Positions 24,492 to 39,914 are shown, counted from the stretch's first letter. The stretch: DNA of 64,000 bases from Acidimicrobiales bacterium (GCA_965209115.1 CBDBQD010000002.1:327890-391889); one strand, 5' to 3'. Numbers and translations are program-made. The notes: generated from the sequence alone by a model not told the origin.

Positions 24492-25529
24492 TCAGGCTCC
24501 CAGTTCCGCTCGCACGATGGCCGCCCCCGCGGCAAGCGCCGACAGCTTGGCGAATGCGACCTCGCGTGACAGGTACTTCATGCCGCAGTCGGGTGCGGGG
24601 ATCAGCCGCTCCGGCGACGTGTGTCGCAGGGCGGCGCGTATCCGCTGCGCCACCGTCTCCGGGTCCTCCACCTCGTCGTTACCGTTGTCGATCACGCCGA
24701 GCACCACGGTCTTGTCGGGCAGCCGCTCCAGGATGTCCAGTTCGATGCCGGGCTGCGCGGCCTCGATGGAGATCTGATCGATCGCGCTGACGTTCAGCTC
24801 CGGCAGGAAGGCGTAGGCGTCCGGTTTCCCGAGCCCCCGCCAGGCGTGGATGGCGGCGTACCCGAAGCACATGTGCAGCACCGTCGTCCCGGTGACCCCG
24901 TCGAGCGCCTCGTCGAGCACCTCGACCGCGTACTGGAGGGCCTGCTCTGGACGGGCCTGCATGTACGGCTCGTCGAGTTGCACCACGTCGGCCCCGGCGT
25001 CGAACAGGTCCTTGAGCTCCCGGTTGACCACCTTGGCGTAGGCCGACGCCGCCTTCCGCTCGTCCCCGTAGTGATCGTCCTGGGCCTGCTGGATCAGCGT
25101 GAACGGTCCGGGCAGGGTCAGCTTGACGGTGCGGGTGCTGTGGGCCCGCAGCAACTCCAGGTCGCGCACACAGATGGGCTCGGGCCGGCGTATCGGCCCG
25201 GCGATGCGAGGCACCGGGTTCGGCTTGCCGGTGCGGTCCATGGCGCTGCCGTGGCGCTCGAGATCGATGCCCCCCAGAGCGGTGGCGAAGTGGTTGGAGT
25301 AGCTCTCGCGCCGGATCTCGCCGTCGGTGATGATGTCCACGCCGCTGCGTTCCATCTCCCCGATCGCCACGATGGTGGCGTCGTCCTGGGCCTCGGCGAG
25401 GCGTTCCGGCGGGATCCGCCAGAGTTCCCGCGCCCGCACCCGCGGCGGCAGTCGCGTGCACAGCGCGGGCCGGTCGATCAGCCAGTCAGGCTGCGGATAG
25501 CTCCCCACCACGGCTGTCGGCAGCAGCAC
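24492..25529 (-). CDS. cobalamin-independent methionine synthase-like (MetE C-terminal domain family) methyltransferase
   Basis: LLPTAVVGSYPQPDWL, ITDGEIRRESY, and a C-terminal PDCGMKY zinc-ligand region. Confidence 0.85.
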   Translation of the reverse strand: MLLPTAVVGSYPQPDWLIDRPALCTRLPPRVRARELWRIPPERLAEAQDDATIVAIGEMERSGVDIITDGEIRRESYSNHFATALGGIDLERHGSAMDRTGKPNPVPRIAGPIRRPEPICVRDLELLRAHSTRTVKLTLPGPFTLIQQAQDDHYGDERKAASAYAKVVNRELKDLFDAGADVVQLDEPYMQARPEQALQYAVEVLDEALDGVTGTTVLHMCFGYAAIHAWRGLGKPDAYAFLPELNVSAIDQISIEAAQPGIELDILERLPDKTVVLGVIDNGNDEVEDPETVAQRIRAALRHTSPERLIPAPDCGMKYLSREVAFAKLSALAAGAAIVRAELGA

Positions 25530-25595
25530 GTCGCGGAGCCTAACGGACGCGCCCGCCCTGCCCGGCCCCCAAGCACCAATGGCTGCCGGAGCAGT

Positions 25596-26567
25596 TCAAT
25601 CGAAGAGGGTCGGCGCGGACGTAGGTGATAGCTGTTCTGGGAGGAGTCTCTCGCCGCTGGCAGATTTCGCGGGTTCCAGCACCGCCGCCTCGAGTTCCTC
25701 GAGCGACGTGACCGGCACGGCACCACGCTCAACCAGCTTCGCATTCCCCGGACCCTCGCCCGGCCCTCGCCACACGGCGACCTGTCCGAGGCCGCGCCTG
25801 AGGGCCTCCGTTGCACCGGACCATGTGCCGCCCGTGTCAATGTCGGCGGTGACCACCAGTGTCACAGCCGACAGGGCATAGATCAGCTTGTTGCGCCCCA
25901 TGGCGTTGCCCACGCTGAAGGGCGCCTCGGGGCTGTACGGCGTGCACATCACGGTGCGCCCCTCGTGGATCGCCCGGCGCACGTCGGCACTACGGAGCTT
26001 GCGTGCCAACGACTCCGCCAGTACCCCCACTACCGATCCGCCGGCCTGGAATGCTGCGTTCATGGCGGTCTGATCGATGCCACGCGCGCCACCGGACACC
26101 ACCGGCAGACCCAGCCGGGCCGTCAGTTCGGCCGCCGCCGTGGCGAGATCAGCCCCCTCGGGCGACACGTCTCGGCTGCCTACAACCCCTACGCCTGGCT
26201 CGTCGAGCGACTCGACGGTGCCAGCCGCATACAGCAGTGCCGGCGCGGTCGCACCCAGCAGGTCGATGAACCGACGCGGGTAGTGATCCTCGAACGGGGT
26301 GAGTGTCGAGATCCCGGTCTGATCGAGACGGTCCAACTCGAGGGCCATTCCCATCGCCCGATCCAGCAGTGTCGCGATCCGGACCGCTAGGTCTCCCGCA
26401 AGCCCGTGCTCGGCTGCGAGCTGCTCGACTCCCAATCCCAGCAGCGCGCTCGGCTTTGCGACCCGATTGCAGAGGTCCCAGAACTCCGGTGCCTTGAGCG
26501 GCTTGACAGGCTCGTCGCGCAGCCGACCGACCAGCAGGATCGTCGCCAGCGAATCTTCGTTCACCAT
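25596..26567 (-). CDS. DprA-like (SMF/SLOG Rossmann) protein
   Basis: Core GVGVVGSRDVSPEG...LPVVSGGARGIDQTAMNAA...GNAMGRNKLIYALS...TGGTWSGATEAL matches the DprA fold motifs. GTG 26600 is an alternative start. Confidence 0.8.
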   Translation of the reverse strand: MVNEDSLATILLVGRLRDEPVKPLKAPEFWDLCNRVAKPSALLGLGVEQLAAEHGLAGDLAVRIATLLDRAMGMALELDRLDQTGISTLTPFEDHYPRRFIDLLGATAPALLYAAGTVESLDEPGVGVVGSRDVSPEGADLATAAAELTARLGLPVVSGGARGIDQTAMNAAFQAGGSVVGVLAESLARKLRSADVRRAIHEGRTVMCTPYSPEAPFSVGNAMGRNKLIYALSAVTLVVTADIDTGGTWSGATEALRRGLGQVAVWRGPGEGPGNAKLVERGAVPVTSLEELEAAVLEPAKSASGERLLPEQLSPTSAPTLFD

Positions 26568-26634
26568 TTCAGCGGCTTCCCCGACGATGCCGGCCGGCAC
26601 CGGTCGAAGGATGGACGGACTCGGGTGCTGGTGC

Positions 26635-28755
26635 TCATTGCACCGACCTCCCGGCTGTGTCGGTGAGGGCGAACGGGAACACCGGGCCGGCGCCAGCCTC
26701 CCGAAGCTCCGTGCCGACAACGGCCAACGTCCACCGGGAGTCGACGATGTCGTCCACGAGCAGGACCGGCCCGGCAGGGACGTCCGCGCGGACCTCGAAG
26801 GCGTTCTGAACATTGCGGTACTGCTGGGGACTGTTCTGCATCGTCTTCTGTGGCTTGGTGTCCCGGATTTTCGCGATGACATCTTCACACGGGAGGCCGA
26901 GCGATGCGGCGAGCCGCCCCGCGAAGTCCGCGACCAGTCCGGGATTCTGCCGCGACGGCACGAAGGTGACCCAGGTCGGTGACGGCTCCGGGTCCCATCG
27001 GTTCCTGATCAGATCCGCCGCGGCGCTCACGAGCTGATCTTCGAACCGCCCGGCCTCCTCCTTCCCTGCCCGGACGAGGTTCCCCCATCCGCCGTCCCCC
27101 CAGACACTCAGCGATCGGCCTTGCTCGTGACGCCGGTCGATGGGGATGATTCCGCCGACGGGCAATCGCTGGCGAGGTTCGATGATCCGTTCGCCTCGGC
27201 GAAGATGGTCGACCGCTCGCTGCACGGTTTCGGGATCGAGCGGAACTTCGAAGCCGCTGCCCGAGCAGTTGTCGCAGATGCCGCACGGCTCGGAGGTCTG
27301 ATCGTCGAGGTAGGAGCCCAGGAGTTGCATCCTGCACCAGTCGGTGGCGACGTACTCGAGCATCTCTTCCTGCTCGGCGACCCGCAGAGCAGTCACCGAC
27401 TCGACACGCTCGTGGTCGTACGACCACTGGCGCAGTGTCCTGGTCCAGCGACTGCCGACGCGCTCGATGGCACCATCGACCTCCAGGTTCTTGAGGAGGG
27501 ATGCGATCTGGCTGGGCCGAACGTTGAACGACTCGAGCAGGTCGCTCCTGGTCATCGGTACGGCGCGTTCGGCGAGGCGTGCGACGACCTGTTCGGCGAG
27601 GTCGGCCGGCGGAAACGCGGAACGGATGAAGAAGTCCTGGATGTCGGCGTCCTCGCTGCCGCGGAGCAGGATCCCCCATGACTCGCTTAGCCCTCGTCCG
27701 GCTCGACCGACCTGCTGGTAGTACGCAATCGGCGACCCCGGTGACTGGTAGTGGATGACGAAGGAGAGATCAGGCTTGTCGAAGCCCATGCCGAGAGCAG
27801 AGGTTGCCACGACCACCTTCACGTCGTTCGAAAGAAGGTCCTGCTCGGTCTCGATGCGCTCGTCGGAGTCTGTCGAGCCGCTATAGGCGACGGCCACGAT
27901 CCTGGCCGACTTCAACCACTCGGCCACGCGTTCGGTGTCAGCGATCGTGAGGCAGTAGACGATGCCCGTGCCTGGCAGCATGGGGATCACATGGGCAAGC
28001 CAAGTCAGGCGCTGTGCTTGACTCGGCATTTCGAGCGCGTGGAGCCGGAGCCCGGACCGTCGCAGCGGTCCCCGCACGGGGCCGAGGCTTGAACCCAGTT
28101 GGTTGGTTACGTCGTCGATGACGCGATCGTTCGCGGTTGCCGTGCAGCACAGGATGGGCACTCCGGCGGGGAGGAGTTCTAGAACCCGTCTGATCCGCCG
28201 GTAGTCCGGACGGAAGTCGTGGCCCCAGTCGGAGATGCAGTGCGCCTCGTCGACCACCAGCAGACCACTGCGACTCCCGATCTTGGGCAGCACCTCGGAG
28301 CGAAAGTCGGGGTTGGCCAAGCGCTCAGGTGAGATCAGCAGCAGATCGACGGCCCCCCGGTCGAGTCCGTCCAGCACCCGAGGCCAGTCCTCGCGGTTGG
28401 CGCTGTTGATCGTCTCGGCCTGCACGTCCATCCGGCGGGCTGCGTCGATCTGGTTGCGCATGAGCGCCAGCAGCGGAGACACCAGCAGGGTCGGGCCGTT
28501 GCCCCGGTCGCGCAGCATGCGGGTGGCGATGAAGTACACGGCGCTCTTGCCCCACCCGGTCCGCTGAACGAGCAGCACTCGCTCCCGCCGTCCCACGAGC
28601 CGTTCGATCGTCTCCAATTGGTTCGGGCGGAAGTCCGATCCCGGATCTCCGGTGAGCCTCCGCAGCAAGCCCAGCGCCTCGCCGGCGAGCGATGGCTCCG
28701 CGGTTGGATGGCCGTCTGATCCCGGTCCTGGTGAGCCATCCGTCATGATGTGCAC
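26635..28755 (-). CDS. RecQ-family SF2 helicase fused to a C-terminal ComFC/phosphoribosyltransferase-like domain
   Basis: QRTGWGKS, VVDEAHCISDWGHDFRPDY, ATSALGMGFDKPD and QQVGRAGR helicase motifs. A Cys cluster CGICDNC. The C-terminus ends in the PRPP-loop-like VLLVDDIVDSRWT. Confidence 0.85.
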   Translation of the reverse strand: MHIMTDGSPGPGSDGHPTAEPSLAGEALGLLRRLTGDPGSDFRPNQLETIERLVGRRERVLLVQRTGWGKSAVYFIATRMLRDRGNGPTLLVSPLLALMRNQIDAARRMDVQAETINSANREDWPRVLDGLDRGAVDLLLISPERLANPDFRSEVLPKIGSRSGLLVVDEAHCISDWGHDFRPDYRRIRRVLELLPAGVPILCCTATANDRVIDDVTNQLGSSLGPVRGPLRRSGLRLHALEMPSQAQRLTWLAHVIPMLPGTGIVYCLTIADTERVAEWLKSARIVAVAYSGSTDSDERIETEQDLLSNDVKVVVATSALGMGFDKPDLSFVIHYQSPGSPIAYYQQVGRAGRGLSESWGILLRGSEDADIQDFFIRSAFPPADLAEQVVARLAERAVPMTRSDLLESFNVRPSQIASLLKNLEVDGAIERVGSRWTRTLRQWSYDHERVESVTALRVAEQEEMLEYVATDWCRMQLLGSYLDDQTSEPCGICDNCSGSGFEVPLDPETVQRAVDHLRRGERIIEPRQRLPVGGIIPIDRRHEQGRSLSVWGDGGWGNLVRAGKEEAGRFEDQLVSAAADLIRNRWDPEPSPTWVTFVPSRQNPGLVADFAGRLAASLGLPCEDVIAKIRDTKPQKTMQNSPQQYRNVQNAFEVRADVPAGPVLLVDDIVDSRWTLAVVGTELREAGAGPVFPFALTDTAGRSVQ

Positions 28756-28845
28756 CCTACGAGGGGGCTGTGACAGAGCCGCCAGGGCCCGTCCTCGTGA
28801 CCGCGTGTTGTGACCAGCCGGTGGTCGTTTGGGAGGAGCGATAGG

Positions 28846-29388
28846 TCAGACGAGTGCGCGGATGGCCATCACCGACCGGTAGTTGCGGGCCGTCGTCTCG
28901 GCGCCGATGAAGCGGTGCAATCGCTCGACCAGCTTGGACCGGCCGAACCCGTTGGGAGTGTGGAGGTAGAAGACCCCATCGGTCAGCACGAACTCCTCGG
29001 CTCGTGTGGCCAATTCCCGCAGGCCGTCCAGATCGGCGGTCGGATCGGGTTCGGCGAGGAAGAAGAAGTGCACCGCCTTCGGGTCTTGCTCGCCCTGGGG
29101 GAACGGGTTGGCGGCGATGGCCGCATCGAAGGCGTCGACGTCGAGAGCGAACGTGTGAGGAGCGAACCCGAAGCGCCCTTCGATGGCGTCCCGGATCGAG
29201 CGGGCAACGGAGTCACGGTCACTGTCCGCCGAGTCGAGAACGATGTTGCCGCTCTGGATGTACGTCCGGACGTTCTCGAAGCCCACGTCGGCGAGCAGCT
29301 CGCGAAGCGCAGCCATCGGCAGCTTGTGACGGCCGCCGACGTTCACACCGCGCAGCAACACGATCCAGGTCGTCATGGCCACCAGCAT
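28846..29388 (-). CDS. DUF1697 domain protein
   Basis: WIVLLRGVNVGGRHKLPMAALRELL...NVRTYIQSGNIVL is the DUF1697 signature. ATG 29388 or 29376. The track ORF extension to 29991 is rejected. Confidence 0.8.
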   Translation of the reverse strand: MLVAMTTWIVLLRGVNVGGRHKLPMAALRELLADVGFENVRTYIQSGNIVLDSADSDRDSVARSIRDAIEGRFGFAPHTFALDVDAFDAAIAANPFPQGEQDPKAVHFFFLAEPDPTADLDGLRELATRAEEFVLTDGVFYLHTPNGFGRSKLVERLHRFIGAETTARNYRSVMAIRALV

Positions 29389-29571
29389 CCCACGGCCCTC
29401 TCGCCAACACCTGCCGAGCGGTGCTGGCAGCCGAGCCCAACGCACCAGATGACGCACGCTCGATGTACAAATTGCGCGCCAGTCGATGTACCAGATGTCG
29501 GACGTTCGACGACCCAGGTGTCGAGATCCCTCTACGCGGCCGCCTGGCGCGCCAGCGATAGCGTCGTCGAC

Positions 29572-30144
29572 ATGGAGGATCACGGGCTCGACATCGACCG
29601 CTTCCGGCGCTGGGCGTTGGGAAATCTCGTCTGGAACACGAACCGCGGCATCTTCGCCGAGTGGCTCGTTGGCCAAGCACTCGGAGCGATTGGCGAGGAT
29701 GAGGCTCGGGACGAGTGGGGCGAGTGCGACCTCTACTACCGCGGCGTCAAGATCGAAGTGAAGACGTCCGGCCGGGGCCAGGCCTGGAAGCAAGACCGGC
29801 CGTCGACGCCGGAGTTCGGCGTCCGACCCCTGAAGCAGACATGGGACAAGCGCACTAACGAGTGGACGGATCACGTTCCGCGGGCGAGAGTCGCCGGCGT
29901 CTACGTGTTCTGCCTCCACGAGCCATTTCCGGCGACGGACGACAACGTCCGCGACCTGGCATCTTGGAAGTTCTGGGTCGGCTCGAAGCAAGCTCTCGAC
30001 GACCAGCTTGGACCACAGGAGAGGATCGGCCTCTCAAGGCTGAGAGACCTCATGGCGTCGGGGCCAGTCGGGTGGTCCGAGATCAAGGCCGAGGTCGACC
30101 GATGCGCCAACCTGGCAGAGAGTGAGGCCGCCTCCGCGACATAG
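29572..30144 (+). CDS. hypothetical protein with a PD-(D/E)xK nuclease-like motif
   Basis: IFAEWLV...ECDLYYRGVKIEVKTS fits the E...D...ExK pattern. ATG 29572. The upstream part of the track ORF is antisense to the DUF1697 gene. Confidence 0.6.
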   Translation: MEDHGLDIDRFRRWALGNLVWNTNRGIFAEWLVGQALGAIGEDEARDEWGECDLYYRGVKIEVKTSGRGQAWKQDRPSTPEFGVRPLKQTWDKRTNEWTDHVPRARVAGVYVFCLHEPFPATDDNVRDLASWKFWVGSKQALDDQLGPQERIGLSRLRDLMASGPVGWSEIKAEVDRCANLAESEAASAT

Positions 30145-30226: not shown

Positions 30227-31018
30227 CTACGCGACGGCGGCAGGCATCTCGTCGTAGTACATGCCGTCGAGGTCGCGACCGTTGGCTTTGGGGGTTCGGC
30301 CTCCCCATTGCTTGAAGAAGAACGCCACGTCGGCCGCTCTGCATTGGTCGCGGAGGTCGCGTACCCACACTTCGTTCATGCGGCGCGCCCGGGGGCCGCT
30401 CTCGCCTCCCGCGATCAGCCAGTCAATTCCGGTGAGGTCTAGGTCGGGGAGCGCTCCGAGGAGCGGCTCGGCGCTCACGAAGCGGACCTTGGCGCCGACT
30501 TGGCGGAGGTGGTCGATCCGGAACGCGTAGTGGTCGGTCTCCACGCTGACCCCTATCCAGACGTTGTGGGGCCAGTCGAGGTCGTCGGAGAGGTTGCGGA
30601 GCCGCCGGGAGCGCTTCGTGAGGATCTGGTAGGTGTGCTGCGGTGTGTCAGCCATGACCTCGAATACGCGGCGGATGAAGTCGAGCGGCACGTCGGGATG
30701 GAAGAGATCGCTCATCGAGTTGAAGAGATCGCTCATCGAGTTGACGAACACCAGCCGCGGCGAGCGCCACGTGTAGGGGATGGACAGGGTGTCCTCGTGG
30801 AGGGTCAGCGCGAAGCCGGGGCCGCTGGTGCGGGTGTCGCCGTCGTTGCGGTACTTGGGCTGGCCCATGGCCTTGAGCCGCTTGGCCAGCGCGAGCGCGT
30901 AACAGTTGTCGCAGCCCGGTGAGGTCTGGTCGCAACCCGTGGTCGGGTTCCACGTCGTCTCGGTCCACTCGATGCCCGAACGGTCGGCCACGGCCCTCCT
31001 CGCAACTCGGTTATCCAC
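30227..31018 (-). CDS. DUF5131 (phage Gp37/Gp68) family protein
   Basis: IEWTETTWNPTTGCDQTSPGCDNCYA three-Cys N-terminal motif, and ...IAGGESGP...FFFKQWGG. Contains an in-frame 7-aa duplication. Confidence 0.85.
   Translation of the reverse strand: MDNRVARRAVADRSGIEWTETTWNPTTGCDQTSPGCDNCYALALAKRLKAMGQPKYRNDGDTRTSGPGFALTLHEDTLSIPYTWRSPRLVFVNSMSDLFNSMSDLFHPDVPLDFIRRVFEVMADTPQHTYQILTKRSRRLRNLSDDLDWPHNVWIGVSVETDHYAFRIDHLRQVGAKVRFVSAEPLLGALPDLDLTGIDWLIAGGESGPRARRMNEVWVRDLRDQCRAADVAFFFKQWGGRTPKANGRDLDGMYYDEMPAAVA
30701..30742. repeat. perfect 21-bp tandem duplication inside the DUF5131 gene
   Basis: gaagagatcgctcatcgagtt occurs twice back to back and encodes NSMSDLF NSMSDLF. Confidence 0.9.
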
Positions 31019-31168
31019 AGCCCCGAGCGTACGAGCGGGGTGTGTCAGCCTTGTCGAGCATCGGCGTCCGGATCAATCGGGACATATAGGCAACGTGCAG
31101 AGTTCCGTGGTTGGGCGTGCGGAGGGCGTTACGCTGCAGTAGATGTCCCGGATCCCACCGCAGGTTCT

Positions 31169-32002
31169 GTGAGCGACATCCGCCTCCCGGACTTTGCTGA
31201 CCCGCCGGTTGTGGAGACTGTGCTCGGTGTCAGTTTCCTTGAGGTGCCTCAGTTGACGTCGACCCAGATCGTGCGCTTCTGGGCGCGACATCTTGCGGAT
31301 GCTCTACCGAGCGACGCGGAGCGTGCTCCCTACGACGTGCCGGTCGAGCGCTTCCCCGCGCCGCCACCGAGGGAGGAATTATCTGTGAGGCTTCGTGTTG
31401 AGCCTCCACCGACAAGGTTCATGTTTTCTGCCGAGAATCATCTGGTCCAGATCCAGTCCGACTGGTTCGCGTACAACTGGCGTAAGACTCCGGCGCGGCC
31501 TGACTACGAGCGATACGAAGCCGGCCGCGAGCGGTTCCAGTCCCACCTTGAGCAGTTCAGCGCATTCCTCGACGCGGATCTAGAGGCGCGTCTACAACCC
31601 GTCCAGTGCGAGATCACCTACGTGAACCACATCGCTCTGCCGGGCCCGACTGACGGAGCGGGACCTCTGGGAGCGGTTCTGCGCGACGTCCAGCCCGCCG
31701 CCGGCGTGTACCTCCCCGAGCCGCATCATGCCGAGTTCTCAAGCCAGTACGAAATGCACGCGGAAGACGTTGTCGGGCGACTCCACGTGTCTGCGCGTAC
31801 CGCGACAGTCGACCGCGACTCGGGCGCCCCGCGAGTCGTCCTGACGCTGACAGCGCGTGGTGCACCCCCATCAGGTGATCTTTTTGGCGTGCTTCGATTC
31901 CTAGACGCCGGACGGGTGTGGATCGTCTGCGGCTTCAAGGATCTGACGACCCCACAGATGCAGGAACGGTGGGGCCAGAAGTCGAAGGGAGAGTCTCCAT
32001 GA
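31169..32002 (+). CDS. TIGR04255-like family protein (unknown function)
   Basis: N-terminus ...FADPPVVETVLGVSF... and overall length resemble the TIGR04255 family as I recall it. GTG 31169 is preferred over the track start at 31040. Confidence 0.65.
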   Translation: MSDIRLPDFADPPVVETVLGVSFLEVPQLTSTQIVRFWARHLADALPSDAERAPYDVPVERFPAPPPREELSVRLRVEPPPTRFMFSAENHLVQIQSDWFAYNWRKTPARPDYERYEAGRERFQSHLEQFSAFLDADLEARLQPVQCEITYVNHIALPGPTDGAGPLGAVLRDVQPAAGVYLPEPHHAEFSSQYEMHAEDVVGRLHVSARTATVDRDSGAPRVVLTLTARGAPPSGDLFGVLRFLDAGRVWIVCGFKDLTTPQMQERWGQKSKGESP

Positions 32003-32490
32003 CACCGCCAACGGGAGCAGTGCTTGCCGAGTCGTCTCCTGGACAGCCGCTGCGCCGGGCGGCGTCGCAGAGCGCGGCTCAATCGGGTGGTCGCTCGCAG
32101 GTGTACGTGCTCTCCGAGATGCATTGGGCCGCAGAGTGGCGAGACGAGACGCTGAGGCGAATCAGAAACCTCCGGTGGCTGGACGCAGGCTGGGACGGCC
32201 CAGGATCGCCGGCTATGGAAGACACAACGCTGGCTGCGGCCTCGCGGTTGGTCGAACAACTCGCTGGGAGTTTGGCGGGCCTGCGGCCACCGGCGATCGT
32301 GCCGACACCAGACGCTGGCGTGTTCATCGAGTGGTACGACGCGACGCACAGCATCGGCTTCACCGTGCGGGATCGTGGTTACGTCGAAGTCTGTTACGAG
32401 GACGCTGCGCTAGGAGTCGAGTGGGAGGGACACGTCGGGAATCTGCCAAACGAGGACTGGCTCCGGATCCTCCTGACCCACCAGCGCTAG
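31999..32490 (+). CDS. hypothetical protein, translationally coupled to the TIGR04255-like gene
   Basis: ATG 31999 overlaps the upstream TGA (ATGA). Contains the motif LRWLDAGWDGPGSPA...PAIVPTPDAGVFIEW. Confidence 0.65.
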   Translation: MTPPTGAVLAESSPGQPLRRAASQSAAQSGGRSQVYVLSEMHWAAEWRDETLRRIRNLRWLDAGWDGPGSPAMEDTTLAAASRLVEQLAGSLAGLRPPAIVPTPDAGVFIEWYDATHSIGFTVRDRGYVEVCYEDAALGVEWEGHVGNLPNEDWLRILLTHQR

Positions 32491-32521
32491 CCACGGCTCA
32501 CCGTTCCGTTGAGCAGCAGTC

Positions 32522-32983
32522 GTGCCGAGCGGACACTATGCAGATGACCTCGAAGGCGTCTCTCCGGGCTCGCAACTCATTCGGCGGATCAATCCGGACT
32601 ACTGCGTCTGGAGCGAGCCCAACGAACAGGGAATGCCACGTATCAACCGCCAAGCCATTCAGTTCTATCGTCCGGAAGAAGCACAGCGACTGGGATGTCC
32701 AGGTCCTGCGGCGTCCTTTCATTTGGAACAGCTGCTGGAGTCGGTGGATGCCCTCCGGCAAGACCACCCCGGTTATGGCTTCGCGCGCATCAACGCGGAC
32801 GCCGTGCGGAGTGGCGGAGTACTCGGCATACAGCCCTGGCCGACCGACCAGAACCCGGAGCACGTTGTCGTGTTCCGTAACGATGGCGGTGTGAGATTGC
32901 AAGAGGCCCAACGCAAGCGCCTTGCCGAGCACCTCACCCGTGATTGGATCGTTCTGCCCGATCCCCCTGATGCCATAGGCTGA
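32522..32983 (+). CDS. hypothetical protein
   Basis: GTG start 31 nt after the upstream stop. Plus-frame codon usage (gac/ctc/ggc/atc) looks more gene-like than the competing minus ORF 32498..33019. Lower GC than the core. Confidence 0.5.
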   Translation: MPSGHYADDLEGVSPGSQLIRRINPDYCVWSEPNEQGMPRINRQAIQFYRPEEAQRLGCPGPAASFHLEQLLESVDALRQDHPGYGFARINADAVRSGGVLGIQPWPTDQNPEHVVVFRNDGGVRLQEAQRKRLAEHLTRDWIVLPDPPDAIG

Positions 32984-33008: not shown

Positions 33009-34463
33009 TTAGTCGCCAATCTCGCCGTCGTAGATCCCCGGAGTCGCGGCGAGGCTGTCGGCGAGGGTTTGGATTTCTTCTAGGGCGGCTTGGAGGTCTT
33101 CGGCGATTTCGGCGGCGAGGACGGCGGGGGGTGGGAGGTCGTCGGTGTCGGTGAGGCTGTCGTCGCGGAGCCAGAAGATGTCGAGGCTGACCTTGTCGCG
33201 GGCCAGCAGTTCGTCGTAGGTGAAGCGCTTGAAGCGTTCGGAGGGCTCGCGGCGGTGGGGTTCGCCGGGGCGGTAGCAGGCGACGAAGTCGTCGAGGTCG
33301 GCGCGGCGGAGGGGGTTCTGTTTGCGGGTGAAGTGCTTGTTGGTGCGCAGGTCGTAGACCCACAGCTCGCGGGTCCAGGCCGCCTCGGCGCCGGGGCGGC
33401 GGCGGAAGAACAAGACGTTGGCCTTGACGCCCTGGGCGTAGAAGATGCCCGTCGGCAGGCGCAGGAGGGTGTGGACCTCGCAGTCGGCCAGGAGGCGGCG
33501 GCGGATGGTCTCGCCGGCGCCGGCCTCGAAGAGCACGTTGTCGGGCACCACGACCGCGGCGGTCCCGTCGATGCGCAGCAGGCCCACCACGTGCTGCACG
33601 AAGTTGAGTTGCTTGTTGCGGGTGGCGGCCCAGAAGTCCTCCCGCTCGTAGCTGTCGGTGGAGGACCGCCCGAACGGCGGGTTCGTGAGCACCATGTCGA
33701 AGCGGGCGGCGGGCCGCTCCCGCAGCGCGTCGTCGACGCGGATCGGCGAGTCGGACTCGGGGCTCTCGATGCCGTGCAGCAGCAGGTTCATGGCGCACAG
33801 CCGCGCCGGCAGATCCGCGATCTCCCAACCGGTGAACGCCCCCGACCGCAGGTGCGCGGTCTGGTGCGGCTCGAGGTGGGGGAAGCGCTGGAGGATTGAC
33901 TGGTAGGCGCCGAGGAAGAAGCCGCCGGTGCCGCACGCCGGGTCGCAGACGCGGTCATCGGGGCCCGGCCGCATCACGTCGACGATCGCCGAGATGAGCG
34001 CCCGCGGCGTGAAGTACTGGCCCGCCCCGCGGGCGCCCTCCTGGGCGGTCTTCTCGATCAGACCCTCGTAGGCGTCGCCCTTCAGGTCGGCGTCGAGGCT
34101 CAGCCACTCGTGGCGGTCCACGAACTCCTTGATGAGCCGCTCCAGCTTCGCCGGGTCCTGCACCCGATTGCGGGCCTTGCGAAACACGACGCCCAGCATG
34201 TTCTCGCCGGCGCCGAGCTCTTCGAGGACCGTGCTGTAGTGCTGCTCCAACTCGACGCCCGAGCGCCGCAGCAGCGACGCCCAGCCGAACCCCGCGGGCA
34301 CCACCCGCTGCCCGCCGAGCTGCTCGAACTGCTCGTCGGCCATCTTCAGGAACAGCAGGTAGGTGAGCTGCTCCAGGTACTCGCCGTACGACAACCCGTC
34401 ATCACGCAGGACGTCGCAGAAATCCCACAGCCGCTGCACCAGGGCCCTCGGATCGGCGGTCAT
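33009..34463 (-). CDS. hsdM: type I restriction-modification system methyltransferase subunit
   Basis: HsdM N-terminal domain (LWDFCDVLRDDGLSYGEYLEQLTYLLFLKM), the SAM motif DPACGTGGF, and the catalytic NPPFG. Confidence 0.93.
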   Translation of the reverse strand: MTADPRALVQRLWDFCDVLRDDGLSYGEYLEQLTYLLFLKMADEQFEQLGGQRVVPAGFGWASLLRRSGVELEQHYSTVLEELGAGENMLGVVFRKARNRVQDPAKLERLIKEFVDRHEWLSLDADLKGDAYEGLIEKTAQEGARGAGQYFTPRALISAIVDVMRPGPDDRVCDPACGTGGFFLGAYQSILQRFPHLEPHQTAHLRSGAFTGWEIADLPARLCAMNLLLHGIESPESDSPIRVDDALRERPAARFDMVLTNPPFGRSSTDSYEREDFWAATRNKQLNFVQHVVGLLRIDGTAAVVVPDNVLFEAGAGETIRRRLLADCEVHTLLRLPTGIFYAQGVKANVLFFRRRPGAEAAWTRELWVYDLRTNKHFTRKQNPLRRADLDDFVACYRPGEPHRREPSERFKRFTYDELLARDKVSLDIFWLRDDSLTDTDDLPPPAVLAAEIAEDLQAALEEIQTLADSLAATPGIYDGEIGD

Positions 34464-34615
34464 GGCCGGAGACGGCGCGGCCGGTTGCGGCCGGAATGGT
34501 CAGTGTGTGGAGTCACCGGCCGGAGGGTACTCAGAGGACGAGAGCGGTGTGGGCCTCGATCTGGTGCGGTCCGATTGGCGGCGGTCGCGTGGTCGCGACG
34601 CCTTGCCGGGCAGGA

Positions 34616-35191
34616 TCAGCGTCCGGGACCGGCTTGTGTGGAGTCGTCGCTGGCGCCAACCGCTGCCAGCCAGGCTTCGATGGGGATCTCGGGAATCGGA
34701 CGTTCAATGCGGTCGGACTGGTCCGCGAAGGCGCGTAGGCCGTCGCGGGTGGTGGCTCGGGGGACGAGTCTGTGATCGCCGGCGGCTTCGAGTTCGTCCG
34801 CGAGGCGGAGGATGGCGTCGCGGTTCGGTCCCGGACGGCGGTCGTCGGCCTCGCGGCGCAGTTTCGGCGGCAGCCTGACGTGTATCGGCTCGAGTTCTCG
34901 GGGGGGTTCCCTCAACCGTTCTCTCGCTTTGGCTTCAGCTGCTGCCAGGCAGGCTTCGATGGGGATCTCGGGAATCGGACGTTCGATGCGGTCGGACCAG
35001 TCGGCGAGGGCGCGTAGGCCGTCGCGGGTGGTGGCTCGGGGGACGAGTCTGTGATCGCCGGCGGCTTCGAGTTCGTCCGCGAGGCGGAGGATGGCGTCGC
35101 GGTTCGGTCCCGGATGGCGGTCGTCGGCCTCGCGGCGCAGTTTCGGCGGCAGGCTGACGTATACCTGCTCGAGCGGCTCTGGCGCTGTCAC
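34616..35191 (-). CDS. hypothetical protein built from two tandem 93-aa repeats
   Basis: Two copies of LPPKLRREADDR.PGPNRDAILRLADELEAAGDHRLVPRATTRDGLRA.AD.SDRIERPIPEIPIEA. The GTG start overlaps the upstream stop (GTGA). Confidence 0.6.
   Translation of the reverse strand: MTAPEPLEQVYVSLPPKLRREADDRHPGPNRDAILRLADELEAAGDHRLVPRATTRDGLRALADWSDRIERPIPEIPIEACLAAAEAKARERLREPPRELEPIHVRLPPKLRREADDRRPGPNRDAILRLADELEAAGDHRLVPRATTRDGLRAFADQSDRIERPIPEIPIEAWLAAVGASDDSTQAGPGR
34662..35173. repeat. 279-bp-period tandem duplication (two copies, few mismatches)
   Basis: 34662-34894 and 34941-35173 are near identical. Track ORFs at 34772 and 35051 begin with identical peptides. Confidence 0.9.
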
Positions 35192-35469
35192 GTCGTGGTG
35201 CCTCCCTCGGCGTCCAGAGTATCAAGGACGTCGCCCAGTGCCTGAGACACCTCCTGAGCCAAGCCTCCGGCGTCCTCCGCGTGCCTGGCGGCGGTTTCGG
35301 CGTGTCTCGCTGCGATATCGACCAGCACGGCTGCGGCGTTCGCCGCGGCAAGGGCCACCCGTGCCGCGCGTGCTGAGGCATGAGCGTCCACCGCGGCGTC
35401 CGATGCTTTGAAACCCTCCGCCTCGACTGCGGCATAGGCGTCGGTGAGCGGGCGATCTGGTTCTGTCAT
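35188..35469 (-). CDS. Ala-rich helical hypothetical protein
   Basis: ATG 35469 lies downstream of an AT-rich promoter-like patch. It is translationally coupled to the next gene. Confidence 0.5.
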   Translation of the reverse strand: MTEPDRPLTDAYAAVEAEGFKASDAAVDAHASARAARVALAAANAAAVLVDIAARHAETAARHAEDAGGLAQEVSQALGDVLDTLDAEGGTTT

Positions 35470-35479
35470 GCGGCGAGTG

Positions 35480-35560
35480 TAGCACGATCCGATAGATTAT
35501 AATGAGTTTCCATTAGTGTCGATAAGTTCTGTGACGATTGTCAATCGACACCGCCTGCTG
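35480..35560 (-). promoter_or_regulatory. AT-rich promoter-like patch with TATAAT and a 13-bp palindrome
   Basis: On the minus strand, ...tcgattgacaatcg...cattataatctatcggatcg... precedes ATG 35469. The palindrome cgattgtcaatcg is at 35535-35547. The flanks are about 70% GC. Confidence 0.4.
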
Positions 35561-35649
35561 ACCGCTACGCGGCCGACCCAGCGGTGCGCGCCCCGCCGAC
35601 CGGGAGTCGGCGACGCGCTCGAGGAGCACCGAGGCCCTCGGATCGGCGA

Positions 35650-36975
35650 TCACGTTCTCGCCCTCCGGCGCGCTGGCTTCGCCGGCTGGGAGGCGGCGAT
35701 CCGCTCGAGGAGCACCGACGCAGGCTCATCGTCAGGATCCTGCGGCACCAGCCGACCGGAGAACGCAGCAGCGAGCACCGACCGGCGGAGTGCAGCAATG
35801 CGGTCGAAGGCGAGGCTGAGTGTTGCCCGCGATTGCTCGACTGCCTGCATCCGTTGGTCGATCCGTGCAACCACATCGTCTTGGACCGCCAGCGGCGCGA
35901 CCGGAATCGGGAAACGGGCAAGCCCTTGCTTGCCAAGGTGGCGGATGTTGACCCCGCGTCCAGCCTCACCGAACGCACCGCGTAGTGCGGAAAGGTAGCA
36001 ATACCAATAGAGATAGCGAAGACTGACGGCTCTTGGCCGCAGCCGGAGCAGAGTGTTCTGAAAGCAGCAGTTCGCGATCTGTCCGTCCCAGATTGCTGGC
36101 TTGCCGACTTCGTTAGGACTGCCAGAAGCCTCGTTGAGCAACAGATCTCCTCGGGTCAGCCGGTACTTCTCGAAGTCAGCACCGCCAAAGTTCATTGTCT
36201 TCACGTCATCGAGAACGATGCCCTCCCAGGAAACGTTGGCGGATCTCAAGTACGGGCGCATTTGCTCACCAGAATGATGCTGAGGCGAACGCTGCCGACC
36301 AAGCTGTACGCTGGCGACCTGCGAGATTGTCATCTCCCGCCAGCCATCGGGAAGTTGGCGCTGGGCGTGGAAGGCCTCGGCGAGGATCGATGATCTGAGG
36401 CTGTCGAGTCGGGTCAGGCTCTGGCGTAACGTGGCCTCGGCGGCGTCGAGGCGGGAGAAGTGCTCTTCGATGGCAGCAACGATCCGCTTCTGCTCCGCAC
36501 CAGGGGCAATCGGGATCGGGAATCGGGCGAGGCCTTGCTTGCCGAGATGCCTGATGTTCACGCCCCGACCAGCATCGCCGAAGCGACCACCTCGGGCCGA
36601 TAGATGGCAGTACCAGTACACGTATCCTCGATCGAGTTCGTGCGTCTGAAGGCGCAGCAGCGTGTTCTGGAAGCAGCAGCCGTCGATCTCGCCGCGCCAA
36701 ATCGCGGGCTTGCCGACCTCATTCGGGCTGCCTGACGCCTCATTGAGCAGGAGGTCGCCAGCCCGGAGCCGGTACTTCTCAAAGTCAGCATCGTCGAAGT
36801 TCATTTCCTTGACGTCGCCAAGGTCGATCCCGCTCCAAGTGACGTTGGCCGATCGGAGGTACGGGCGCATCTGATCACCCGTGTGGTGTTGCGGGGAACG
36901 CTGGCGGCCCAGCTGTACTTCAGCAACGTCGGACATGTTCGCCCATGCCCAGCCGGAGGGCAGCGCGTCGCTCAC
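35650..36975 (-). CDS. hsdS: type I R-M specificity subunit with two closely similar target-recognition halves
   Basis: Two halves share LGRQRSPQHH.G.QMRPYLRSANV.W...DLLLNEASGSPNEVGKPAIW...CCFQNTLLRL...GVNIRHLGKQGLARFPIP. GTG 36975 overlaps the hsdR stop (GTGA). Confidence 0.88.
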   Translation of the reverse strand: MSDALPSGWAWANMSDVAEVQLGRQRSPQHHTGDQMRPYLRSANVTWSGIDLGDVKEMNFDDADFEKYRLRAGDLLLNEASGSPNEVGKPAIWRGEIDGCCFQNTLLRLQTHELDRGYVYWYCHLSARGGRFGDAGRGVNIRHLGKQGLARFPIPIAPGAEQKRIVAAIEEHFSRLDAAEATLRQSLTRLDSLRSSILAEAFHAQRQLPDGWREMTISQVASVQLGRQRSPQHHSGEQMRPYLRSANVSWEGIVLDDVKTMNFGGADFEKYRLTRGDLLLNEASGSPNEVGKPAIWDGQIANCCFQNTLLRLRPRAVSLRYLYWYCYLSALRGAFGEAGRGVNIRHLGKQGLARFPIPVAPLAVQDDVVARIDQRMQAVEQSRATLSLAFDRIAALRRSVLAAAFSGRLVPQDPDDEPASVLLERIAASQPAKPARRRART

Positions 36976-39791
36976 GCCACCAGTACCTCCATCAGTTCGT
37001 CCATCAGGGGCGTGAGTTCTTCTCCGAAGAGTTGGAGGGCGCGGCCGTAGCCGCCGTGGGTGCTGAACGGAGGGTTCCTGAAGTCGTACGGGGCGATCAT
37101 CAGGCTCGTTGCCAGGTGATCGCGGATCAGGCGGAGGTAGGCGACCTGCTCGTCTGTGAATGCACGGCCGGCGTTTCGCTGCTGCTGAAGCCACGCCTCG
37201 AAGCGCTCGTTGACCAGGTCGGGGTAGGCGACCAACTCATCGGTCCGGCCGAGCGCGTAGCGGACGAGGCTGACGAGGTCGGTGTTCACGCGGTGGCCTG
37301 AGCCGCGCACCTTGTTGGCGTCGAGGCTCTCGTAGGCGGCCCATAGGTCTTTGGTGGTCCAGCGGTGGGGTGGGCGGGCGATGGCGTTGGCCAGTTCCTT
37401 GACGTCGGTATAGGTGAACCCGCCACGGGGTTGGCCATAGAGCACCTGGAGGGCGGTGATCTGGTCGCGGTTCTCTTCGATGAACTTTCGGAACGACTCG
37501 ACTTGGCGGCGGGCCCTGTCGGTGGCGTCGACGGAGAACCCTTCGGAGATGACCGTATCGGGTGAGGCCGAGTCGATCATCTGCTCGTAGCTTCGGCGGA
37601 CCTCGATCAGCTTCTGCCGCAACTCCGGGTTGCCGGCCAGCGGCTCCAGGGCCTGGCGGACGATCCTCTCTCGGGCGGCGGCGACCTGCTCGACGGAGGG
37701 ATCATCGGTGCCGACGGCCTCGGCGGCGGCTTCGATGTGCCGGTCGGGGTCGAGCGCCTCCACCAGTTGATGGGCCAAAGCGCTGAGGCTCATGCCGGCG
37801 ATCTTCTCCACTTCGGCGCGGTCTTCGGCGGTCATGCGCTGGTCGAGTCGGGCGAGGCGTGACGCCACCGACGACACGGTGGCCTCGTCGGTGGAGCCGA
37901 GACCGATGCGGGCCAGGAGTTGGTCGAAGCTCTCGTGGCGGTTGCGTTCGAGCGGCACGGTCTCGGGCAGGTCGTCGTCGGTCACGCCGACGGCGTCGAC
38001 GAGCACGAAGCGGTCCTTGACGGTGGCGTCGGGGGTGACGGCCCGGAGGTCGTTGGGGTCGATGACCCGCACGCCGCGGCCCTTCATCTGCTCGAAGTAG
38101 TTGCGGCTGCGCACCCGGCGCATGAACACCACGCACTCGATGGGTTTCACGTCGGTGCCGGTGGCGATGAGGTCCACGGTCACCGCGATGCGGGGGTTGT
38201 AGGCGTTGCGGAACTGCGCCAGCAGGTCCTCGGGGCGGTGGCCGGCGTCGCCGGAGCGGTAGGTGATCTTCACCGCGCTCTCGTTGCCGAGACCGAACTC
38301 CTCGCGCACGATCTGGACGATGTCATCGGCGTGGCTGTCGTCCTTGGCGAAGATCAGCGTCTTGGGGACGTGACGCAGCCTCCCGTCCGAGCGCCGCTCG
38401 CGGTCACCGAACATCGTCGGCAGCGAATCCCGCAACGTCGCCACAATTGTGCGGATCTGGTCGGGCGCCACCACCCGGCGGTCCAACTCGGCGGCGTCGT
38501 AGTCCACATCCTCATCGACGAGCTCGAGGCGCTGGGAGCGGGTCAGGCGGTCGCGGAACTCCGTGACGAACCCGGCGCGCACGGTGCCGCCGCCCTCGCT
38601 GATCTCGGTGCGGATCCGGAACACGTCGAAGTCCACGTTCACCCGGTCCGCCACCGCCTCCGCGTGGCCGTACTCGGTGACCAGGTTCTGCTCGAAGAAC
38701 GCGAAGGTCTGGATGCCCGGCGTGGCGGTCAGGCCGACGATGAACGCGTCGAAGTACTCCAGCACCTGCCGCCACACCCCGTAGATGGAGCGGTGGCACT
38801 CGTCGACGACGATCACGTCGTAGGACTCGACGGGCACCGCCGGGTTGTACACCACCTCCACCGGCTGCTCCGGCGCCACCTCGAAACCGGACCGCTCGTC
38901 GACGGCCTCGTCGATCTCCTCGCCCCCCAGCAGCGAGTGCAGCCGCTGGATCGTCGAGACGTGCACCTTCGTGGCCCCCTCGGTCGCCATGTCGAGGCGC
39001 GAGGAGGTGAGCCGGCGCACGTTGTACAACTCGGTGAACTTCCGGCCGTCATCAGGCGTGTCGAAACCCTCGAACTCCCGCACGGCCTGGCGGCCCAGAT
39101 TCGCCCGATCCACCAGGAACAGCACACGCCGCGCCCCGGCATGGCGCACCAGCCGATAGATGGCATTGACGGCCGTGAAGGTCTTCCCCGCACCCGTGGC
39201 CATCTGGATCAGCGCCCGCTGCCGGTTGTCCCCCAGTGACACCTCGAGGCTTCGGACCGCCTCGGCCTGGGCGGGCCACAGCCCTCGGAGATCCAACTCG
39301 GGCAGCAACCGCAGGCCGGCGCGCAACGTACCGGCGCCAGTCTCCACGTGGTCGATGACCCACCGGGCCAGCGTCTCCGGCCGGTGGAAGCCGAACACCC
39401 GCCGGGACGTCGGCACCGGATCCAGGCCGCACGTGAACCGGGTCTCGACGCCGGTGGACTCGTAACCGAACGGCAAAACGCCGTCCACCTGGAAACTCGG
39501 CAACTCTCCGGGATACGACTGCTGGTATCCCAAAGTCTGCGCCTCCACGCCCGTCAGCGTCGTCCCCACAGGCTTGGCCTCGATCACCCCCACCGCCTGG
39601 CAGTCCACGAACAGCACATAATCCGCCCGCCCCGCACCGACCGGCACCTCCCTCACCGCCACCCCCCGAGCCGCAGCCACCGCCGCAGACTTGTGATCCT
39701 GCACCACCCAACCACACGCCGCCAACTGCGCGTCAATGTCCCGCCGAGCCTCCTGCTCCGGCGTGAGCCCGCCCGCGGAATGGTCAGTCAT
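36972..39791 (-). CDS. hsdR: type I restriction enzyme R subunit
   Basis: N-terminal EQEARRDIDAQLAACGW, Walker A MATGAGKTFTAV, DEAH-type VVDECHRS, and a long helical C-terminal domain. ATG 39791 (MTDHSAGG) is preferred over the track start at 39875. Confidence 0.92.
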   Translation of the reverse strand: MTDHSAGGLTPEQEARRDIDAQLAACGWVVQDHKSAAVAAARGVAVREVPVGAGRADYVLFVDCQAVGVIEAKPVGTTLTGVEAQTLGYQQSYPGELPSFQVDGVLPFGYESTGVETRFTCGLDPVPTSRRVFGFHRPETLARWVIDHVETGAGTLRAGLRLLPELDLRGLWPAQAEAVRSLEVSLGDNRQRALIQMATGAGKTFTAVNAIYRLVRHAGARRVLFLVDRANLGRQAVREFEGFDTPDDGRKFTELYNVRRLTSSRLDMATEGATKVHVSTIQRLHSLLGGEEIDEAVDERSGFEVAPEQPVEVVYNPAVPVESYDVIVVDECHRSIYGVWRQVLEYFDAFIVGLTATPGIQTFAFFEQNLVTEYGHAEAVADRVNVDFDVFRIRTEISEGGGTVRAGFVTEFRDRLTRSQRLELVDEDVDYDAAELDRRVVAPDQIRTIVATLRDSLPTMFGDRERRSDGRLRHVPKTLIFAKDDSHADDIVQIVREEFGLGNESAVKITYRSGDAGHRPEDLLAQFRNAYNPRIAVTVDLIATGTDVKPIECVVFMRRVRSRNYFEQMKGRGVRVIDPNDLRAVTPDATVKDRFVLVDAVGVTDDDLPETVPLERNRHESFDQLLARIGLGSTDEATVSSVASRLARLDQRMTAEDRAEVEKIAGMSLSALAHQLVEALDPDRHIEAAAEAVGTDDPSVEQVAAARERIVRQALEPLAGNPELRQKLIEVRRSYEQMIDSASPDTVISEGFSVDATDRARRQVESFRKFIEENRDQITALQVLYGQPRGGFTYTDVKELANAIARPPHRWTTKDLWAAYESLDANKVRGSGHRVNTDLVSLVRYALGRTDELVAYPDLVNERFEAWLQQQRNAGRAFTDEQVAYLRLIRDHLATSLMIAPYDFRNPPFSTHGGYGRALQLFGEELTPLMDELMEVLVA

Positions 39792-39914
39792 GGTGCCGAT
39801 CCGGGAGACGGTAGTGGCTGCTCCGGAATGACTCTCATGCTGCAAGGGATGCCGCCGGTGGTGGGTCCGAGACAATGGAATGCCGGCCGGGTTGCCCTGC
39901 GCGCGATCACTAGG

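Follow-up and report, generated by a model that had tools for sequence, protein, structure and literature searches.

Do the three co-directional genes at positions 25596-29388 of a 64,000-nt stretch of Acidimicrobiales DNA (the window, meaning that whole stretch at its full length) encode a new defence system, or one that is already described? An initial annotation, made from the sequence alone, had proposed a candidate new system composed of a DUF1697 protein, a RecQ helicase fused to a ComFC-like phosphoribosyltransferase (PRTase) and a DprA-like protein, and had asked for a check that the locus escapes existing defence models. It does not escape them: the PADLOC PsyrT and PsyrA models match the helicase-PRTase gene and the DprA-like gene, respectively. 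We conclude, with a probability of roughly 0.85, that these two genes (26635-28755 and 25596-26567) form a PsyrTA (RqlHI) toxin-antitoxin (TA) and anti-phage module in an uncultured Acidimicrobiia-type actinobacterium. The pair is an ordinary member of a known system, with DUF1697 as a local neighbour upstream and not as a third component. Since current PADLOC models already call the locus, there is no case for pursuing it as a new kind of defence, and its main value is negative. The three open reading frames (ORFs) were found on the minus strand at the coordinates originally assigned to them, and the ORF check bore out their shared direction and their gaps, estimated at about 90 and 67 nt and calculated from the coordinates as 90 nt (DUF1697 to RecQ-PRTase) and 67 nt (RecQ-PRTase to DprA-like):

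25596-26567, minus strand: psyrA (rqlI), predicted DprA-like antitoxin gene, a short form without a C-terminal winged helix-turn-helix (wHTH), 323 aa
26635-28755, minus strand: psyrT (rqlH), predicted toxin gene, RecQ-like helicase plus ComF-like PRTase, 706 aa from GTG 28755
28846-29388, minus strand: DUF1697 gene, a neighbour, 180 aa; Pfam DUF1697 E value 1.6e-43

The identification is carried by full-length matches to the toxin and antitoxin models and by a characterised arrangement, with the toxin gene followed by the antitoxin gene on the same strand. PADLOC PsyrT matches the 706-aa protein with an E value of 1.2e-267, residues 26-702 covering profile positions 7-686 of 689, and PsyrA matches the 323-aa protein with an E value of 6.8e-81 (residues 2-290, profile positions 3-297 of 398); the ShosA model gives the same protein a far weaker E value of 1.4e-28. 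Compared with the pair on an Escherichia coli IncF plasmid, the toxin shows 48% identity over its full length and the antitoxin 35%. That plasmid pair itself scores 1018.9 bits with PADLOC PsyrT and an E value of 6.1e-174 with PsyrA.

The helicase, zinc and PRTase parts of the larger protein follow one another in this order, together with the loop predicted to bind phosphoribosyl pyrophosphate (PRPP):

27658-28638, minus strand: superfamily 2 (SF2) helicase core, residues 40-366; Pfam DEAD E value 1.6e-21, Helicase_C E value 2.5e-17
27256-27402, minus strand: RecQ-type tetracysteine Zn-binding module, residues 452-500; Pfam RecQ_Zn_bind E value 4.9e-07
26638-27243, minus strand: C-terminal ComF-like type I PRTase domain, residues ~505-706, predicted toxic module; AlphaFold2, Foldseek and Pfam
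26728-26766, minus strand: PRPP-binding loop VLLVDDIVDSRWT, residues 664-676, identical in the E. coli homologue

All of the RecQ/SF2 motifs, the cysteine cluster and the PRPP-loop-like sequence that had been read from this protein are present. Walker A is QRTGWGKS at residues 64-71 (GWGKS, with K70), DEAH lies at 169-172 within VVDEAHCISDWGHDF (167-181), and these are followed by ATSALGMGFDKPD (317-329) and motif VI, QQVGRAGR (347-354). The tetracysteine consists of C474 and CGICDNC at 491-497 (C491, C494 and C497), and the module aligns to the Deinococcus radiodurans RecQ Zn domain. At 229.3 bits the protein exceeds the 219.8-bit cut-off of NCBIfam recQ_fam, and no HRDC family was found among its Pfam matches at E values up to 0.01. 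A sequence search of the PDB matched the helicase core to the RecQ structures 4q47 (E value 2e-56) and 1oyw (E value 3e-53) and returned no solved structure of a PsyrT/RqlH C-domain. The AlphaFold2 model of the C-terminal 207 residues had a predicted local distance difference test (pLDDT) score of 85.6; Foldseek placed Helicobacter pylori ComF (7p0h) at the top of its PDB matches, followed by APRT, PurF and ShosT (8zvb/8zvd), all with a probability of 1.00. The modelling thus supports the PRTase/ComFC fold suggested for residues ~510-706, and it confirms a predicted ComF-like type I PRTase in an architecture that is already published. Within the PRPP loop, the acidic pair is D668/D669, with D672 as the third aspartate.

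The 323-aa protein likewise carries the DprA Rossmann motifs attributed to it, VVGSRDVSPEG at 128-138, VVSGGARGIDQ at 156-166 and GNAMGRNKLIYALS at 220-233, and matches Pfam DNA_processg_A (E value 2.6e-35) and SLOG cluster4 (E value 4.4e-08). Its AlphaFold2 model (pLDDT 86.6) consists of a helical N-domain (residues 1-83) and a Rossmann domain (87-297), and Foldseek aligned it over nearly its whole length (309-325 columns) to DprA 3maj, ShosA 8zva and DprA 3uqz, which bears out the proposed DprA-like fold. The N-terminal extension described as non-canonical is nothing of the kind: it models as a helical SAM-like domain common to DprA and ShosA. Hence, by Pfam, AlphaFold2 and Foldseek, the domain assignments of the initial annotation (RecQ-like SF2 helicase, ComF-like PRTase and DprA/SLOG-fold partner) hold, and the novelty that it drew from them does not.

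PsyrTA and RqlHI are the same system (bioRxiv 10.1101/2022.05.11.491447). A 2012 study of Mycobacterium smegmatis RqlH defined three parts, the RecQ-like ATPase, the tetracysteine Zn module and the C-terminal ComF-like PRTase, and located the 3'-5' helicase activity in residues 1-505 (PMC3378886). In 2015, E. coli RqlH was reported to be genotoxic through the PRPP loop of its PRTase, with the DIVD motif required for toxicity, and the downstream DprA-like RqlI was found to neutralise RqlH and to co-immunoprecipitate with it (PMC4670107). The antitoxin role of the DprA-like partner was established between 2013 and 2015, the founding study being, according to the papers that cite it, Sberro 2013. 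PsyrTA was reported to act in phage resistance in 2022, and a psyrA deletion was not transformable (bioRxiv 10.1101/2022.05.11.491447). By analogy with these homologues, PsyrT would be a 3'-5' DNA helicase whose C-terminal PRTase, with PRPP, is genotoxic, causing SOS induction, filamentation and growth arrest. The N-terminal and DprA-like domains of PsyrA would bind PsyrT and restrain the toxin. Phage infection might then upset the balance, for instance if the antitoxin is lost or is titrated by single-stranded phage DNA or replication intermediates, and the freed PRTase activity would halt replication of both cell and phage, with the helicase probably targeting or modulating PRTase activity on DNA. 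The initial annotation had also considered a PRTase/SLOG nucleotide-derived signal. The characterised homologues use the PRTase as toxic effector and the DprA-like protein as antitoxin, and we dropped the nucleotide second messenger because neither the homologue literature nor the anatomy supports it.

To place the pair in a wider context, we compared 83 loci: 80 at species level, with 6 kb of flanking sequence, and one from each of three close relatives, for which contigs were used (L081, L082 and L083). At 63 of the 83 the helicase gene is immediately followed, on the same strand and usually after no more than ~50 nt, by a DprA-like gene; contig ends truncate four loci, and the other 16 are without a partner. 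Paired loci span Actinomycetota, Chloroflexota, Cyanobacteria, Pseudomonadota, Clostridia and others, the pair is also found on plasmids, and L082 carries a 90%-identical copy in an unrelated context (AraC/PTE). These observations show a unit whose two genes stay together in different phyla and which moves from one genomic context to another. For the 16 RqlH genes that have no partner, we looked downstream for a conserved alternative and found none, the genes there being mutually unrelated.

The state of the PRPP loop differs between paired and partner-less loci. The third aspartate (DDxxDS) is retained in 61 of 62 alignable paired loci and replaced in 11 of the 16 partner-less ones (L015, L017, L027, L031, L047, L049, L051, L057, L072, L075 and L076), for example by DDIRFS, DDRRHS or DDTVNS. 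In this small sample, which carries no phylogenetic correction, average-linkage clustering on identities points to three or more independent losses, in a Solirubrobacterales clade, a planctomycete and a haloarchaeon. The alignments thus suggest that partner loss goes with PRTase inactivation. An intact loop goes with the presence of the partner, as it should if an active PRTase has to be held in check by that partner, and the often degenerate loop of partner-less RqlH favours, on comparative grounds, the PRTase as the activity that the antitoxin has to counter.

The comparison also bears on a 2015 survey, which reported almost no RqlI orthologues in Gram-positive bacteria. To judge from the window pair and its numerous Acidimicrobiia relatives, Acidimicrobiia-type Actinomycetota do carry paired RqlH and RqlI, with a short antitoxin. 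The alignment of the window antitoxin to the long E. coli partner spans only 283 of 462 residues, and the 75% coverage rule of that survey would probably have excluded such short antitoxins. As for the host, the nearest named relatives of the window proteins are Acidimicrobiia or Acidimicrobiales metagenome-assembled genomes, and the GC content of the window is high (0.60-0.75).

Several observations weigh against an identification as PsyrTA. The PsyrA profile is covered to only ~74%, because the wHTH is missing: a C-terminal HTH like that of E. coli RqlI was not found in the 323-aa protein, which ends after a disordered tail. This HTH is dispensable in E. coli RqlI (PMC4670107) and short antitoxins are widespread (lengths of 320-339 aa in 102 of the 120 nearest homologues), so we do not regard it as defining for PsyrTA. 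The Pfam Pribosyltran match of the toxin (E value 1.6e-05, 24.7 bits) falls slightly below the 26.3-bit cut-off, and in a later study the PsyrTA of an E. coli isolate gave no detectable protection (bioRxiv 10.1101/2024.12.20.629700). Finally, the two nearest genomes carry the pair beside core genes at one and the same chromosomal position, which would also fit a vertically inherited repair module.

This last point leads to the alternative that survives best, which we nevertheless consider unlikely: a housekeeping module for DNA repair or recombination, in which RqlH works with a DprA-like mediator and has no TA or defence role in this lineage. Besides the shared chromosomal position in L081 and L083, it draws on M. 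smegmatis RqlH being a bona fide 3'-5' helicase that has been called a RecQ substitute (PMC3378886), on the many Actinomycetota that carry RqlH alone, and on the promotion of recombination and binding of RecA by ShosA. A patchy distribution across phyla speaks against it, as do the occurrence of the pair on plasmids, inside a type I restriction-modification (R-M) operon and, at 90% identity, in an unrelated context. So does the link between an intact PRPP loop and the presence of the partner, and so does the setting. R-M and TA genes accompany the pair in a defence island that is variable: in L081 and L083 it adjoins Meth_synt_2, FxsA and PhyH genes at the same site, with the other side varying between genomes, and in the window the island stretch (25596 to ~42400) is of lower GC content and also carries a PDC-M41B/DUF5131 gene and a TIGR04255-family gene. 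The defence-island setting noted at the outset was confirmed through ParE and PIN genes and the three genes of a type I R-M system:

33009-34463, minus strand: type I R-M hsdM
within 35650-37194, minus strand: type I R-M hsdS
36972-39875, minus strand: type I R-M hsdR

The three-gene reading, with DUF1697 as a functional third component, fares worse than the repair module and is very improbable. It draws on the short gaps between three co-directional genes, on the presence of DUF1697 at the same position in L081, and on the junctions in L082, where the homology block runs from the DUF1697 start codon to the DprA-like stop codon. On the evidence of these junctions, the three genes formed one contiguous block in the past and moved as one in a narrow lineage. 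Against it, none of the 80 species-level loci has DUF1697 less than 6 kb from the helicase, L083 lacks it too, PADLOC gives it no match, and the characterised systems of E. coli and Pseudomonas function with two genes. The closest relatives are especially telling: the gene is frameshifted by two 1-nt deletions in L081 (87% identity) and reduced in L082 (90% identity) to ~22 codons joined to the helicase's upstream spacer, while the pair remains intact in both. The three-gene reading is already largely refuted by these conservation data and, judged from the alignments, DUF1697 is a lineage-specific neighbour and not a system component.

A competence-type module for uptake of single-stranded DNA, analogous to ComFA, ComFC and DprA in natural transformation, is scarcely credible: H. 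pylori ComF is indeed the best structural match of the PRTase domain, NCBIfam gives weak GntX and ComF matches and the partner has a DprA fold, but the scores lie far under the NCBIfam equivalog cut-offs (comF 17.6 versus 233.55 bits, GntX 21.9 versus 304, dprA 95.5 versus 191.15), the helicase is RecQ-type and not ComFA-type, the distribution is accessory with island and plasmid contexts, and the characterised homologues act as a TA pair, so that the annotation's lean towards defence over competence agrees with both these scores and the literature.

Returning to PsyrTA, the start of psyrT and the spacer ahead of it deserve a closer look:

28756-28845, minus strand: spacer upstream of psyrT, 90 nt

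The true start of psyrT is likely ATG 28746, which would give a protein of 703 aa; a homologue that is 99% identical to the RecQ-PRTase (P0001) has this length and fits this codon. Similarly, the DUF1697 ATG conserved in relatives is 29376, giving 176 aa. The hexamer TAGGGT lies 7 nt ahead of ATG 28746, and this spacing suggests that the psyrT mRNA may be leaderless. The last ~73 nt of the spacer move with the pair into the different genomic context of L082, and the spacer probably holds the pair's own promoter. A scan of 25300-29700 for sigma-70 promoters and intrinsic terminators found none, with a consensus that is uninformative for a high-GC actinobacterium.

The antitoxin ends in a short conserved motif:

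25599-25676, minus strand: disordered C-terminal tail of the antitoxin, residues 298-323; pLDDT <50 for residues 301-321

In the window the tail ends in APTLFD (25599-25616), the local version of Q-x-[ST]-L-F-[DE], and its L321 and F322 are conserved at 90% or more. Of the 120 nearest homologues, 98 carry the motif within their final 15 residues, compared with none of 120 helicase controls; Q is present in 96, S/T in 93 and D/E in 71 of 115 sequences. Among 62 diverse partners from other phyla, 29 have it in the post-Rossmann tail versus 6.2 expected from shuffling; beyond the window, the tail was noted at L001, L002, L011, L014, L041, L043, L077 and L023/L032/L052. Long antitoxins often carry it at about residue 320, just ahead of the wHTH, and Pseudomonas copies end in QLGLGL. 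The tail motif agrees with the consensus for binding the beta sliding clamp (DnaN), Q-phi-x-[LM]-[FL], often followed by negative charge (PMC11139829), and with QESLF, the clamp motif that served for the beta-clamp deletion in M. smegmatis DinB1. Tentatively, and with more doubt than confidence, the tail motif of PsyrA-type and possibly ShosA antitoxins could be read as a clamp-binding motif. If so, the antitoxin or the TA complex would be tethered to clamps on replicating DNA, and toxin release would be coupled to replisome or clamp status in phage infection; APTLFD has no Gln, which should weaken clamp binding of the window copy. In the two RqlI/ShosA papers that we searched for the term, a clamp is not mentioned. 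By analogy with ShosA, a degron that sets antitoxin turnover would be equally plausible, because the ShosA C-terminus confers instability in the ShosTA literature. Whichever applies, the motif provides a lead on antitoxin positioning or turnover in the PsyrTA family.

The phage collection contained no full-length PsyrT, just generic RecQ-like helicases, and only three weak DprA-like matches, one of them in a ShosTA-like pair of Salmonella phage SopEPhi. In this P2-like phage (L085, 11098-12646), a 193-aa ShosT-like and a 325-aa ShosA-like protein are annotated as "unknown", and the latter ends in NTSLL, resembling the PsyrA-family tail motif.

The surroundings of the locus hold other genes worth recording. 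Within the type I R-M genes, ~1.2 kb between hsdS and hsdM (34464-35649) has no gene call; L083 has two small unannotated ORFs there. On the conjugative IncF E. coli plasmid (L084, NZ_OX030731.1, 37352-40869), the PsyrTA pair lies between hsdS and hsdR of a type I R-M operon. A DUF5131 protein (30227-31018, minus strand) matches PADLOC PDC-M41B with an E value of 9.9e-111. PDC-M41A adjoins PDC-M41B in L081 (5543-6478) and L083 and is missing in the window, so this candidate system looks incomplete in the window genome. Divergent from DUF1697 is a 190-aa ORF (29572-30144, plus strand) with no Pfam, NCBIfam or PADLOC match, whose DNA is ~84% conserved in L081. Between DUF5131 and hsdM, three co-directional genes occupy 31040-32983 on the plus strand: a TIGR04255-family gene (31040-32002), a 190-aa ORF with a weak PDC-M32A match (31918-32490) and a 153-aa ORF without a match (32522-32983). 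Across the whole window, Rfam at gathering thresholds and a tRNA scan returned nothing, so we see no tRNA-linked integration site in it. Repeats sought around the three genes were limited to short matches of 14-30 nt, and none flanking them was seen.

How, then, does the locus compare with known systems? The helicase core gives strong partial PADLOC matches, up to an E value of 1.1e-89, to DpdF of the Dpd 7-deazaguanine DNA modification system. The main DpdF models (PDLC02864, PDLC02870 and PDLC02861) align to the helicase and Zn part alone, whereas the best full-length match is PsyrT, and the NCBIfam DpdF score of 131.8 bits falls well short of the 550-bit cut-off. With ComFA, ComFC and DprA the locus shares three activities, namely a helicase or translocase, a ComF-type PRTase fold and a DprA fold; it differs in that the helicase is of the RecQ family, the PRTase is fused to it, and the locus is accessory and island-borne.

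ShosTA, a sister system with a described mechanism (PMC11961720, PMC12961424), likewise combines a PRTase-domain toxin with a DprA-like antitoxin, and our models match the structures of ShosT (8zvb/8zvd) and ShosA (8zva). The N-terminus of ShosT, however, is a pyrophosphatase/hydrolase and not a RecQ helicase as in the window, and no ShosT model was found among the best 25 PADLOC matches of the 40 families matched. Binding between toxin and antitoxin is also absent in ShosTA (type IV), in contrast to RqlH and RqlI, which co-immunoprecipitate. M. smegmatis RqlH (MSMEG_5935) has the same helicase, Zn and ComF-like order, an actinobacterial host and known helicase biochemistry; unlike the window gene it has no DprA-like partner, and the window protein keeps the third PRPP-loop aspartate. 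The closest counterparts are PsyrTA of Pseudomonas syringae (psyrTA) and RqlHI of E. coli F11 (rqlHI), which show the same RecQ-like ATPase, tetracysteine, lack of HRDC, ComF-like PRTase and DDIVDS loop, and the same DprA-like partner directly downstream. The window pair differs from them in its host, a high-GC Acidimicrobiia-type actinobacterium, and in its shorter antitoxin (323 versus ~400-460 aa), which has no wHTH and ends past the Qx[ST]LF-type motif.

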